A stretch of 64,000 nucleotides of DNA, taken from positions 12,152,001 through 12,216,000 of the forward strand of contig OZ024765.1 in NCBI GenBank assembly GCA_964016885.1, written 5' to 3'. A program made the translations under genes and the position numbers. This document shows positions 2,038 to 61,759 of this stretch, one piece after another. This DNA is from Eledone cirrhosa. Its lineage: Eukaryota. How positions within the stretch are numbered: position 1 is the first letter of the stretch; every line of letters begins with the position of its first letter. The notes under the pieces are model-generated. The model searched no databases and was not told where the DNA came from. It worked only from the letters and a program-made list of their open reading frames with translations.

Positions 2038-2104
2038 CTCCATTACCAAAGGTTTCAGGACTCTAGACAATATTAACATATGTCTAGTTCATCATTAGAT
2101 AGAG
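2038..2104 (-). ncRNA. Type I hammerhead ribozyme, degenerate core (CUAAUGA), inside inverted repeat 2014-2175
   Basis: Minus strand: CTCTAT-CTAATGA-T GAAC TAGAC...GTCTA GAGTCC T-GAAA-CC TTT GG-TA-ATGGAG. Same family as 61104-61171. Confidence 0.7.
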
Positions 2105-2420
2105 GGGTTATCAGAGGTAACCCCTGAGTCCTGAAACCTTTGCTATAGGAGTAGTTATATATTGGGTTGTTCACTATATATATATATATATTTATAGAGA
2201 GAGAGAGAGAGAGAGAGAGAGAGAGACAGAGAGAGAGCGAGAGAGAGAGAGAGAGAGAGAGAGAGAAAGAGATGTATGTTTGTGAGTATCTCAGGTTCAA
2301 TCGGGGGTAACCACAATAATTAAGGTACTCAATACATAGTAGAGTATATCTAAACTATAATAAAGGAGGGACTGCGTACGTTTTTTTTTTTTTTTATCCC
2401 GTTAGTAAAATAATTTGGAT

Positions 2421-3543
2421 TACTTTGAATAAATAATTATTTCTACTTTAGGCACAAGGCCAGCAATCACCCAGTACATTACTGGTACTTTATTTTATCA
2501 ACCTCGGCAGGATTTGAACGCAGATCATAAAGGGTCGTAAACTATGCTGGAAAGCATGGCGTCCGACCCTCTACCGATACTGCCAAACCACCGCCCTCTA
2601 CTTTGAATAAATAATTGTTTCTACTTTAGGCACAAGGCCAGCAATTACCCAGTGCATTACTGGTACTTTATTCTATCGACCCCGTAAGGATGAAAGGCAA
2701 AGTCAACCTCGGTGGGATTTGAACTCAGATTGTAAAGGGACGTAACTATGCTGGAAAGCATGGCGTCCGACCCTCTACCGATACTGCCAAACCACCGCCC
2801 TCTACTTTGAATAAATAATTGTTTCTACTTTAGGCACAAGACCAGCAATTACCCAGTGCATTACTGGTACTTTATTCTATCGACCCCGTAAGGATGAAAG
2901 GCAAAGTCAACCTCGGTGGGATTTGAACTCAGATTGTAAAGGGACGTAACTATGCTGGAAAGCATGGCGTCCGACCCTCTACCGATACTGCCAAACCACC
3001 GCCCTCTACTTTGAATAAATAATTGTTTCTACTTTAGGCACAAGGCCAGCAATTACCCAGTGCATTACTGGTACTTTATTCTATCGACCCCGTAAGGATG
3101 AAAGGCAAAGTCAACCTCGGTGGGATTTGAACTCAGATTGTAAAGGGACGTAACTATGCTGGAAAGCATGGCGTCCGACCCTCTACCGATACTGCCAAAC
3201 CACCGCCCTCTACTTTGAATAAATAATTGTTTCTATGTTAGGCACAAGGCCAGCAATTACCCAGTACATTACTGGTACTTTATTTTATCGACCCCGTAAG
3301 GATGAAAGGCAAAGTCAACCTCGGCAGGATTTGAACGCAGATCATAAAGGGTCGTAAACTATGCTGGAAAGCATGGCGTCCGACCCTCTACCGATACTGC
3401 CAATCCACCGCCCTCTACTTTGAATAAATAATTGTTTCTACTTTAGGCACAAGGCCAGCAATTACCCAGTACATTACTGGTACTTTATTCTATCGACCCC
3501 GGAAGGATGAAAGGCAAAGTTAACCTTACTTTGAATAAATAAT
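2421..3543 (-). repeat. Tandem array of about 6 SINE-B copies (unit about 204 bp = SINE + one target-site copy)
   Basis: Motif ctactttgaataaataat recurs at about 2598, 2802, 3006, 3210 and 3415, and tactttgaataaataat also flanks both ends. Confidence 0.9.
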
Positions 3544-3942
3544 GAATGAATATTACATAATTTATCTACTAAATTTCGTAAACAAAAATAATTTCGTAAA
3601 AATAAATAATTTAAAATTGACTTCTTTTCAAAGTTGCACTTCCGGTATATCGTCGCCACCACCACCACTTCAACTACCATATATATATAGAAAGAGAGAG
3701 TGTATGATGTCAACACTTCCGGTGGCGATCACTTAAATAAACATACTAATTTCCTCCTAATGCAGTTTATATATAATATCGTCTTTTTTAATGTATCATG
3801 GATTACTTTACTGATTACAGAAGACAGTGTAACTCAGTCTCTCTTCAATTTATGTGCATAGTGTCAATTACGATTTTATTTGATGCATCATATCTACATG
3901 TATGTATATTTGCATATAATATCAATATACACACTACACATG

Positions 3943-3980
3943 CTAGCAGAAAACCACACGAAGGGTGGTTTTTCTGCTAG
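3943..3980. repeat. Small hairpin next to the hammerhead palindrome
   Basis: CTAGCAGAAAACCAC-acgaagg-GTGGTTTTTCTGCTAG. Confidence 0.7.
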
Positions 3981-3985
3981 AAATG

Positions 3986-4114
3986 TTTAATATAGAAATG
4001 GCTTCTACAGGACTAGAACTGTTTCCTTCAAAAGAAATCATCAGGAAAGACTTTCCTGATGATTTCCTTTGAATGAAACAGTTCTAGTCCTGTAGAAGCC
4101 ATTTCTATATTAAA
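3986..4114. mobile_element. Near-perfect palindrome carrying a hammerhead on each strand
   Basis: Symmetric about 4050 with about 64 bp arms. Followed by a tail (4127-4187) shared with 2290-2347, 24737-24793 and 47403-47463. Confidence 0.9.
4051..4098 (+). ncRNA. Type I hammerhead ribozyme (mirror copy on minus strand, 4002-4049)
   Basis: TTTC-CTGATGA-T TTC CTTT GAA T-GAAA-CAG TTCTAGTC CTG-TA-GAAG; predicted GUA cleavage triplet. Confidence 0.85.
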
Positions 4115-5139
4115 TTTGTTGTATACACTCTACTAATATATTGAGTACCTTACGTACTCTGATTACCCCCGATTGAACCCAGGACTCATAAATATATATA
4201 TATATAGTACTGGATACTAGGGTTAGTAGTTTATGGTTCATATACATATATATATATACATATAGGTGCGTGTATAAAAGTGTAAGGAGCTCAACTGCAA
4301 AAATAACTGTAAAACAGCCGGTTGCTATAATCATTGCAGAGATATTCAGGTAAAATACCGTAGGGCAGAAAAAAGGTCGGTGGAAGCTAATGAATTCAAA
4401 GCCCCTAAAAATGGCAGTGAGCAGTCGTAAGAGAAGAAAAGGTGAAGTTATGAGGGAGAGAAAGAAAAGCAGGCATATATAGAAATAGAAAATGTGTCAT
4501 TACCTCATCAGCATCCCACTATCTGAATGGTTTCGTGTGGTATTGGAAAGACTATTCATTTTTTTTTTTTAAGATAGCTCACTCAGCAGAAACATAAGTA
4601 TATCTGCTAGTATGAATCAATAGCATATGAGAAATAAATCTGCCTGATGTAATTTGATTCAAACCTATTCCTTTGTGGGCGTGGTTATAAGTTGATTGAC
4701 AAGTGAGGTGTGGAGGTACATTAACAGAGGGGAGTTCTTTGATGAAATCAAGTGTGAACTAAGGTAAAAAAATGTAGGGCATCAGATAGGGGAGAAGGTC
4801 AACCTTGACTCAAGGTTACAATCAATTACATGGGGAGAATGAAATTAGGACAGTGAGTGGATCATTAAATAGTTTGGTTTGACCATCTAGATCAGGGGAT
4901 TCAAACATGGGCCCCACAAACTACATTTTTATTGCCTGTGTCAGAACATTTATAATGGAAAATTTGTCACCCCTACATTTTGTATTAATTCACATATCCC
5001 ACTTATTATTATATGCATATTCAAATCCCCCAGGGTTAACTTTGCCTTTCATCCTTACGGGGGTTGATAAAATAAAGTACCAGTAATACACTGAGATAAT
5101 TGCTGACCTTGTGCCAAAAGTAGAAACAATTATTTTAGG

Positions 5140-5335
5140 GGCGGTGGATTGGCAGTTTCAGTAGAGGGTCGGACACCATGCTTTGATGCATAGAGTTACG
5201 GCCCTTGCCATTCTGAGTTCAAATCCCACGGAGGTTAACTTTGCCTTTCATCCTTACGGGGTCGATAAAATAAAGTACCAGTAATGCACTGGGTAATTGC
5301 TGGCCTTGTGCCAAAAGTAGAAACTATTATTATTG
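5140..5335 (+). mobile_element. SINE-B (partial copy upstream at 5020-5135)
   Basis: GGCGGTGGATTGGCAG...GAGTTCAAATCCC...CTTTGCCTTTCATCCTTACGGGGTCGATAAAATAAAGTACCAG...GTAGAAAC(ATT)n. The central block resembles the Meta/Nin-type SINE domain. Confidence 0.85.
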
Positions 5336-5694
5336 GTATATTCTAAATTAAAGTACTAGTCACACATTGGAGTCTTTCTCATTTTCCTTCTCATTTACAC
5401 CCTAGTCCCACGGTGAAATAATATCCACAATATTATTTTTATATTTTGGTGAATCGGCAGAATCAGTAGAGTGTCAGACAACCAGCTTTACACCATATAG
5501 CTTTTCAGGAAAATGAAGTTATGAACTGTTGGAAACGAGTTATCTCATCTATGACACTGGAATGCATACATGTTAGGACAACTTATCTCATCTATAGCAG
5601 TGAAGAGGTTAAACTCATAACATCAAGGGCCGTAAACTCAATACTGCCAAGCATGGTGCCCGACGCTCTACTGATTCTGCCAATCCACCCTCAT

Positions 5695-60460: not shown

Positions 60461-60540
60461 GCTGTCTGAAGATCTAATTCTTTCCATTGGAAATTCTCTG
60501 AATTTCCAATCTTTTGATTAGTGAAACCGTCGGTAATAGC
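60461..60540 (+). ncRNA. Type I hammerhead ribozyme, second copy of the 28023 family (repeat about 60400-60625)
   Basis: GCTGT-CTGAAGA-T CTAATT...ATTGGAAATT(ctctg)AATTTCCAAT...GATTAG T-GAAA-CC GTC GG-TA-ATAGC. Confidence 0.92.
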
Positions 60541-60734
60541 AATAGAACATATGTGAATATTTAAATCGTTTTTTAATTTATTTAAAAGATTGTTTGATGA
60601 TTACTTGTTCCGCTCATTTTTATAGTTCTGGTATCTCAAATTAGTACCATCGAACCACAACTATTATAAATATTATGCATATTTCTTAGGTACTTAGTGC
60701 CTGTTGGAATATCCATACCCTTTTATATATATAT

Positions 60735-61065
60735 TCATTTCATTTCATTTCATTTTACATCCGCTTTTCCCTGCTTTCAAGGGTGGGACGGGAACTTATT
60801 CTGGCTTGATTTCTACAGCTGGATGCCCTTCCTAACACCAACCTCATTTGCAGTGAGTGCTGGGTGCTTTTTTGCCGTGGCACCTCCACGGCCACTTTGC
60901 AGTGGAATGATAGGGATCCCAGTCCCTATCATTTCTACAGCTGAGTAAACTGGAACAATGTGAAATAAAGTGTCTTGCTCAAGACAACACATCACCCGGT
61001 TTGAGAATTAAACTCACAACCTTTCGATTGCAAGGCTAATGCTCTAACCACTAAGCCATGTGGCT
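60735..61065 (-). mobile_element. SINE-A
   Basis: Consensus match. Confidence 0.9.
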
Positions 61066-61103
61066 CTAAATAATTAGAAAGTGAACAACACAAAATATAA
61101 CTA

Positions 61104-61171
61104 CTCCATTACCAAAGGTTTCTGGATAACAGACAACAATAATATACGTTTGGATCGGTCGTCAGATGGAG
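61104..61171 (-). ncRNA. Type I hammerhead ribozyme, irregular stem II
   Basis: Minus strand: CTCCAT-CTGACGA-(36 nt)-GAAA-CC TTT GG-TA-ATGGAG; perfect 6 bp stem I. Confidence 0.8.
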
Positions 61172-61335
61172 ATGTTATAGATAAAAGATATGAAATGAGA
61201 TATAAAATCTGTTGAAAATATATATATATAAGTTTTGCAAGAGATGTCAACATGAATGGACCTTATTTTCATCTAAAGACATTTTTTCCAATTCCATCCC
61301 GCCCGTCCCCTCAATCTATTTTATTTCTCATTCTT

Positions 61336-61371
61336 TCTTCTGATGAAGGACTAGCGTCCGAAACGTTAAGA
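61336..61371 (+). ncRNA. Minimal type I hammerhead (dimer-type, palindromic stem III), in dispersed repeat 61248-61458
   Basis: TCTT-CTGATGA-A GGAC TAGC GTCC-GAAAC-GTT-AAGA. Confidence 0.88.
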
Positions 61372-61702
61372 CCCTCTTCCTGCTATATCAAGCTTTAACC
61401 TAATATATACCTTCCATATACTGTACCGATTGTGTTGTTATTTCTGTTTACCTTTTACATATATATATATATATATATATATACATATATTTTGAGTGTA
61501 TGTTGGTTGTTTACCGACACCTCAGTATGCAGATTGGAGCACTCGATGAAGTACGCAGGTTGGTTTGGTTACTCCGGAGTAATGTAAAATAATTAAGTCA
61601 AATATTTAAAATTTGGCTTCGTTTATTAAAGATGTACTGCTATATATGACGGAGTAAAACACTTCAACAACATGTGTACCTGTCTCTACCACACCAATTC
61701 AG

Positions 61703-61759
61703 ACTGCCTGAAGAGGTCACAGTCAATGATGGCTGTCACCGAAATATATATATAGCAGT
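61703..61759 (+). ncRNA. Type I hammerhead whose stem III is an (AT)n run, within inverted repeat 61585-61810
   Basis: ACTGC-CTGAAGA-GGT C ACAGTC(aatgat)GGCTGT C ACC-GAAA-TATATATA-TA-GCAGT; perfect 63 bp arms 61585-61647 / 61748-61810. Confidence 0.9.

Follow-up and report, generated by a model that had tools for sequence, protein, structure and literature searches.

Dispersed minimal hammerhead ribozymes are known from Penelope-like elements (PLEs), for which about 2,000-9,000 per genome have been reported (Cervera and de la Pena, 2014, PMC4209133). Hydra PLEs combine hammerheads with (TA)n targets, and one of them, Hydra-1_Obim, comes from Octopus bimaculoides (Craig et al., 2021, PMC8557442). 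According to Frangieh et al. (2024, PMC11167929), AT-rich DNA is nicked in both of its strands by the PLE endonuclease, reverse transcription starts at two sites that lie inside the junction of the pseudo-long terminal repeat (pLTR) with the open reading frame (ORF) and bound a tail, and the template is mainly RNA that has not been cleaved. Retrozymes are tandem elements derived from pLTRs (PMC7229834; bioRxiv 10.64898/2026.07.22.740005). Here, a stretch of 64,000 nucleotides (nt) of the Eledone cirrhosa genome (contig OZ024765.1, positions 12,152,001 to 12,216,000; hereafter the window), which lies in a 3.0-Gb assembly, was analyzed for the many hammerhead motifs that it contains. With a probability of roughly 85%, these motifs are the pLTR hammerheads of many endonuclease-bearing PLE families, carried in short inserted copies.

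The motifs were searched with a type I hammerhead descriptor made of the core boxes, stems I-III and an optional extra base after A9, and block dinucleotide shuffles as well as the reversed and the complemented window served as background controls. With intact core required, the relaxed descriptor matched the window 14 times, all in the type I layout of conserved core and three stems with stem I open, against a mean of 0.3 (maximum 2) in 40 shuffles and none in either the reversed or the complemented window. The strict descriptor gave nine matches, against means of 0.05 and 0.025 in two sets of 40 block dinucleotide shuffles. The original prediction, made from the letters of the window, had listed 17 loci and three mirror copies and had named shuffled sequence as the check on them. 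All 20 motifs are present, 13 of them pass the relaxed descriptor with intact core, and the excess over shuffled sequence is the one just given. The single core changes that it had seen at four loci are also there (G5 at 2098- and 36775+, A6 at 28564-, G12 at 43239+; signs denote the strand), and three of these four pass once one mismatch is permitted. Three further motifs (27582+, 45071+ and 61165-) have intact cores and imperfect stems and failed the descriptor, and each has relatives elsewhere in the genome. The motif at 46891-, family F8, is weak: its score of 17 lies within the range of shuffled sequence (up to 20), and no relative was found among the genomic loci compared. One locus, with its core at 29007-, had been overlooked, and the families number 13 instead of about 11. 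No hammerhead appeared among the best 150 of 245 rows of an Rfam scan, in which the matches were microRNA models on TA hairpins.

The density of hammerheads is genome-wide and not peculiar to the window. In a genome sample of 39 stretches of 10 kb at round coordinates (390 kb), 40 motifs scored at least 17, against 0-2 in eight shuffles; contigs C1-C4 held eight of them in 120 kb, and the other contigs 32 in 270 kb. The size-weighted estimate from this sample is about 270,000 motifs in the genome, with a wide error because the matches cluster, and the window is about twofold above the sample mean. Exact core matches across the genome number 3910 for F2, 3593 for F3a, 8396 for F4a and 5643 for F10, with none in backward-read controls, and 140 motifs from all collected loci fall into 36 clusters. 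That the motifs arose by chance in AT-rich repetitive DNA would fit the score of 46891-. The 14 matches against 0.3 in the window, the 40 against 0-2 in the sample and the thousands of exact copies leave this explanation practically no probability, and it is refuted for all but possibly F8.

The hammerheads of the window are as follows. The searches for parent elements mentioned here and below covered about 1 Mb of genomic loci.

2038-2104, minus strand: F9 hammerhead, G5 substituted, Hydra-type tail hairpin downstream
4002-4048, minus strand: F2-related hammerhead (core 4044-), left arm of a head-to-head pair
4052-4098, plus strand: F2-related hammerhead (core 4056+), right arm of the pair, carrying the tail
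23434-23498, plus strand: F3a hammerhead (core 23442+) of a Hydra-type PLE, within an insertion at about 23246-23540 that has an inverted tail on its 5′ side
24073-24117, minus strand: F4a hammerhead (core 24112-), short-end arm of a 256-nt inverted pair
24225-24269, plus strand: F4a hammerhead (core 24230+), tail-bearing arm, the tail being the start of the parent ORF (1329 aa)
24814-24862, minus strand: F2 hammerhead (core 24857-), tail-bearing arm
24864-24916, plus strand: F2 hammerhead (core 24871+), short-end arm; parent a Hydra-clade PLE (protein P0001)
27577-27615, plus strand: F10 hammerhead, one mismatch in stem I; parent a 4.2-kb PLE with reverse transcriptase (RT) and GIY-YIG
28023-28103, plus strand: F5 hammerhead, stem II long; no parent in the loci searched
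28526-28571, minus strand: F7 hammerhead, A6 substituted, partial inverted copy; no parent in the loci searched
28925-29012, minus strand: F6 hammerhead (the overlooked locus), intact core, stem III self-complementary; no parent in the loci searched
36771-36806, plus strand: F1 hammerhead, decayed, G5 substituted
43231-43301, plus strand: F3b hammerhead, G12 substituted, Hydra-type tail hairpin; no parent ORF in the loci searched
45064-45127, plus strand: F11 hammerhead, decayed stems, intact core; intact relatives elsewhere
46849-46895, minus strand: F8 candidate hammerhead, weak; no relative among the loci compared
50495-50534, minus strand: F1 hammerhead, stem III palindromic and loopless
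60461-60540, plus strand: F5 hammerhead
61104-61170, minus strand: F9 hammerhead, intact core, internal loop at the base of stem II
61336-61371, plus strand: F1 hammerhead within an insertion at about 61229-61458; parent with RT, C-x4-C-x2-C linker and GIY-YIG
61703-61759, plus strand: F4b hammerhead, stem III a TA run; no parent in the loci searched

The copies end at TA tracts. A (TA)6 run lies within 250 nt downstream of 46 of the 54 motifs from window and sample, against 692 of 2325 background positions, and upstream of 24 of the 54. The TA tract marks the 3′ end of the copies, and every family examined has fixed 3′ ends abutting (TA)n. The adjacency noticed in the original prediction thus holds, as does its remark that neither RT nor GIY-YIG ORFs accompany the motifs here: the window has no PLE protein match, and its sole long non-repetitive ORF belongs to an RTE-type long interspersed nuclear element (LINE). 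Its suggestion that such elements explain much of the unique DNA was overstated, since the islands amount, by eye, to about 5.4 kb (8%) of the window.

The evidence for a PLE origin comes from longer copies. When the families were followed in the 5′ direction, five of the 13 (F1, F2, F3a, F4a and F10) ran into autonomous elements that encode an RT with a C-terminal GIY-YIG endonuclease, which bears out the PLE origin and microsatellite targeting that had been proposed and, for these five, gives no support to stand-alone, retrozyme-like mini-elements. The F1 copies (61340+, 50530-, 36775+) have a fixed 3′ end and variable 5′ ends, and at six F1 loci (L014, L022, L030, L032, L033 and L034) RT motifs, a C-x4-C-x2-C linker and GIY-YIG lie 580-650 nt above the same hammerhead. 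The parents of F2 and F3a are of Hydra type. A full-length F2 element, L186, reads hammerhead, tail, ORF of 758 aa, untranslated region (UTR) of 3.65 kb and hammerhead again, with a period of 5.97 kb. Its protein, P0001, has all motifs of the Hydra clade: RWR (RWK-like), DKT, the CxCX5C linker, and CxxC and CxH around a conserved E and N. The nearest Atlas clusters of P0001 bear GIY-YIG, RVT_1 and HTH_animal, its alignment to the F10 RT is weak (21%, E 9e-5), and a PDB search with it gave no significant match. F3a parents were found at L195, a 4.1-kb pLTR-ORF-pLTR element, and at L191, L192 and L196, and they match P0001 at 33-51%. The F4a parent (L257:419-4408) has an open frame of 1329 aa with a long Asn/His/Thr-rich insert. 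It sits in a 4.4-kb tandem with three or more copies, and the tail codes for the first part of its ORF. The F10 parent, L237, is 4.2 kb long and frameshifted, and it matches RVT_1 (E 6.5e-7) and GIY-YIG (E 2.4e-6). Partial-tandem pLTRs, inverted 5′ copies and a tail at one end recur at L186, L195, L237, L257 and in the F2 pairs. A tail hairpin with a 2-nt bulge, placed between the two 3′ ends, is common to F2, F3a, F3b and F9 and is also seen at L034 and L081. It occurs in five of 36 clusters, against two of 1755 shuffled windows, and it is a candidate RT recognition element of Hydra-type PLEs.

Compared with described PLEs, F2 is, judged by its protein motifs, a member of the Hydra clade, and F3a joins it by similarity. 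The C-terminal GIY-YIG, the RWK-like and DKT motifs, the CxCX5C linker, a canonical hammerhead near the 3′ end and (TA)n targets are all shared with that clade. Comparison by eye showed that P0001 parallels the printed Hydra-1_Obim protein, and that a hairpin like the tail hairpin is visible at the end of Acropora Hydra-2 (PMC8557442). Here, however, the families and their hammerheads are different and the copies of each family number in the thousands, and the periods of 4.1-6 kb, which come from long repeat-rich 3′ UTRs, exceed the length below 3 kb that is typical of, if not defining for, the published Hydra clade. In their features F1, F4a and F10 may tentatively be likened to Neptune/Nematis-type PLEs (C-x2-5-C-x2-C linker). 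In these PLEs and in Poseidon PAc of Anolis, the hammerhead lies in the pLTR right before the ORF, as here, and further points of likeness are AT-rich targets, a tail with which the ORF begins, a pair of 3′ ends and the copying of uncleaved RNA (PMC11167929). The long Asn-rich insert of the F4a ORF has a counterpart in the Adineta Penelope described in print. Because PLE hammerheads, (TA)n targeting by Hydra PLEs and a Hydra family of an octopus have all been published, this is not a new system; most of it belongs to a known kind, as new PLE families that carry hammerheads on an unusual scale, and not to a retrozyme radiation. It does provide apparently intact ORFs (758 and 1329 aa) for a clade whose biochemistry was not found described.

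The scale stands out. The PLE hammerheads of Cervera and de la Pena (PMC4209133) share with those of the window the many families, the mostly single copies, the opposite-strand pairs, the palindromic stem III and the extra base after A9, and the roughly 270,000 motifs estimated here stand against about 2,000-9,000 there; since descriptors differ, counts between genomes are only loosely comparable. A repeat annotation of O. vulgaris (2026) lists 31 recently active PLE families, and the word ribozyme is absent from its accessible text. For the giant squid, 235 Rfam hammerheads are given in the published paper, and for axolotl up to 120,000 retrozyme copies. The literature covered, with subscription journals, Repbase reports and bioRxiv supplements outside its scope, gave no octopus hammerhead count and nothing on run-off or twin priming as the source of short PLE copies. 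Among the published genomes compared, that of E. cirrhosa perhaps has the densest set of hammerheads.

Animal non-LTR retrozymes share with these copies the type I hammerhead, the short unit devoid of ORFs and the ancestry in pLTRs. They would reach the genome as tandem units whose transcripts self-cleave to monomers, circularize and reinsert, and in their favor many stem IIIs are self-complementary, as in dimer-active motifs, and one F2 array exists on C1: at L180-L181 (G000:C1:83679785-83691708), 12 head-to-tail units of about 1.08 kb, each made of hammerhead, tail and TA-rich spacer, lie beside a full-length ORF copy. However, retrozymes are described as tandem units running from cleavage site to cleavage site, whereas in the window the copies stand alone or head to head, and PLE ends bound them. 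The tandem monomers that the original prediction had named as one thing to look for did not appear here: the window has no head-to-tail hammerhead repeat, and the copies start above the core and stop at the tail sites of PLEs. None of 13 tail-anchored F2-type 5′ ends is at the cleavage site; among these 13, one is the tail of another family, one leaves its locus and about three are in diverged subfamilies, in which ends may be underestimated. A retrozyme origin is therefore improbable.

The 5′ ends of the short copies suggest how they were made. Copies were taken in the order in which they lie in the genome, and the distance of each end above C3 was measured in nt. For F2, 16 of 30 arms end at 1-7 nt and one more at 12; the range 13-169 is empty, and the other 13 arms end at 170 or more. 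For F10, a peak forecast from four arms was confirmed in 23 new ones, 18 of which end at 28-45 nt (mode 44), with one at 6, none at 46-76, one at 77 and three long; in divergent F10 pairs, 12 of 23 gaps are 60-102 nt, five of them exactly 81. Eight of 20 F3a copies end at 80-86 nt, three are shorter, one ends at 100 and eight are long. Three of 21 F4a copies end at 55-60 nt and none at 61-205, the rest being long. The F2 boundary has a TATA-like box that begins 30 nt above it, and for the F10 mode this distance is 31 nt. CCAAT-like boxes are also seen in F10, and YY1- and NRF1-like words in F4a. No description of sharp 5′ boundaries under TATA-like boxes was found in the PLE literature consulted, in which Penelope of D. 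virilis is given a TATA-less internal promoter (PMC2377424).

This pattern suggests that the sharp 5′ edges correspond to RNA 5′ ends and that the short copies are complete run-off cDNAs of the leader, not random fragments. Transcription would begin within the pLTR, just above the hammerhead, so that an RT primed at the tail nearest the RNA 5′ end would run off that end after 60-290 nt. The products would be short copies that have a fixed 5′ boundary and always include the hammerhead, and priming on both nicked strands would give head-to-head pairs. Most copies would then probably be promoterless and inert. We hold leader run-off to be somewhat favored, and it would explain the abundance of short, hammerhead-bearing fragments in PLE-rich genomes.

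A number of results weigh against the PLE origin of all families or against the run-off step. Eight of the 13 families (F3b, F4b, F5, F6, F7, F8, F9 and F11) have no linked ORF in the loci searched, the single ORF match of F4b belonging to a neighboring element, and F3b and F9 are linked to Hydra-type families by the tail hairpin alone. Pfam RVT_1 is matched neither by P0001 nor by the L257 ORF. As to the 5′ ends, the promoter motifs were recognized in retrospect, a clear TATA box is missing from F3a, and F1, F3c and two F4b groups have no sharp peak, the ends of F1 being spread over 13-337 nt with three at 108-111. In two full-length copies, the 5′ pLTR begins 6-9 nt higher than the peak, at 12 in L186 and at about 52 in L237. 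In F2, the boundary falls on the 5′ edge of stem I, and the F2 peak could therefore be due to structure. Another account keeps the PLE origin and takes the short copies for ordinary 5′ truncations with hot spots set by RNA structure or microhomology. Random 5′ truncation is the standard reading in the published text (PMC4209133, section 5), and it agrees with the F2 peak at the stem I edge and the diffuse ends of F1, F3c and F4b. On the other hand, the peaks of F10, F4a and F3a lie clear of the ribozyme, their distances above the core being 44, about 57 and about 86 nt. The ends also reach a sharp upstream boundary or stop short of it, the stretch beyond it is a gap, and TATA-like boxes are placed at -30 and -31. 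Ordinary truncation is thus judged rather unlikely.

Head-to-head pairs bear on the same question. In F2, counts made by eye show that the two 3′ ends of a pair differ, one being long and the other short, in 23 of 23 cases (from 30 loci, one a duplicate) and in another nine of nine, the optional tail being the start of the ORF region. The F2 junction of the window recurs at 99-100% identity in many loci, as it would if the head-to-head unit were itself a transposing, two-polarity element of viroid-like kind. However, only 71 exact copies of the junction exist genome-wide against 3910 cores, and the other pairs have many different junctions. At the commonest junction, moreover, the loop has one orientation relative to the tail in 16 cases and the other in seven, and all three tail variants occur in both. 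Junction counts, junction diversity and loop orientation largely refute the palindrome as a self-moving unit, and a viroid-like element is very improbable. For such palindromes, self-priming on antisense RNA has been proposed in the published account of Arkhipova et al., and it may apply here as well. A loop found both ways round is more easily understood if the ends of two cDNAs were joined, or if flips came later, than if a single fold-back or an inherited unit were involved.

A further family, F12, is found in short form only. It joins a Hydra-like tail to what would be the 3′ half of a hammerhead-like fold, and most of its copies are paired head to head. It is not a hammerhead because the first core box is missing. 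Besides a copy near 1700-1800, the window has three pairs with approximate ends:

25244-25423: F12 short-only element, head-to-head pair
36951-37134: F12 head-to-head pair
42930-43110: F12 head-to-head pair

One 29-mer of F12 has 455 exact matches, and the 390-kb sample holds about seven insertions. None of 55 arms extends beyond the fixed 5′ end. In the genome, 41 matches have a core box upstream, with no common flank, and the four loci viewed, of ten, were all inversion junctions only. No intact parent was found among the 55 arms, the 41 upstream-box matches and these four junction loci. F12 is a candidate non-autonomous PLE. Some of the hammerhead families might likewise be true non-autonomous PLE derivatives, moving as short RNAs by PLE proteins in trans in the manner of short interspersed nuclear elements (SINEs). 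Non-autonomous PLEs are already known, F12 has its fixed 5′ end and no common upstream flank, and six hammerhead families have neither a parent in the loci searched nor the tail hairpin. F3a counsels against this step: its best-scoring matches suggested a fixed-length non-autonomous family, which was ruled out by long copies and full-length parents. F12 itself has no first core box, and no more than about 1 Mb of loci was searched for parents. This account is thus possible but doubtful.

The leader run-off reading can be put in a fuller form, to which we give about even odds. A few hundred thousand hammerheads would have arisen because the RT primes at the tail of its own RNA close to the 5′ end and copies as far as the cap, where it runs off, so that complete promoterless leaders, with start site, hammerhead and tail, enter (TA)n, often twice and head to head. 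An upstream TA tract, as a borrowed TATA box, could let some leaders, with F12 as the candidate, propagate themselves like SINEs, recognized through the bulged tail hairpin. If this is true, transcription starts could be located for dozens of PLE families from the 5′ edges of the copies, with no need of RNA data.

As to activity, 17 motifs were folded, and the constrained hammerhead fold lies 0.3-7.7 kcal/mol above the minimum free energy; in six of the 17, stem III is fully self-complementary. By the pattern described in print, most of them would be predicted to cleave poorly alone, and any cleavage would need dimers or protein help. Mirror copies lie on opposite strands and therefore give no dimer in cis; read-through would give a long hairpin instead. 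If read through, the near-perfect head-to-head arms would form long double-stranded RNA, the relevance of which to cephalopod RNA editing is speculation. F4b (61745-61754), several F3 relatives and L105 have a stem III that consists of a TA run, which varies in length and reaches 14 nt.

The window contains other repeats as well. The segment at 60075-60410, which adjoins F5, is a high-copy repeat without hammerhead (2959 first-look candidates) that ends in (TA)n at other loci. It had been considered as the upstream part of F5 and proved to be a different repeat, and the F5 parent was not found by that search. The RTE-type LINE lies at 29350-31938 on the minus strand, with an open frame of 862 aa that includes RVT_1, an inserted PHD-like finger and a short trinucleotide run at its end. 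A tRNA-like Rfam match at 62999-63056 on the plus strand (35.7 bits, above gathering) is probably the head of a SINE. Inverted arms of 202 nt, 157 nt apart, are found at 40711-41271. Minisatellite arrays occupy 2498-3526, 5825-7073, 14774-15146, 18201-19515, 33212-34044, 34605-36101 and 53376-54176, and several of them are assembled from pieces of dispersed repeats.

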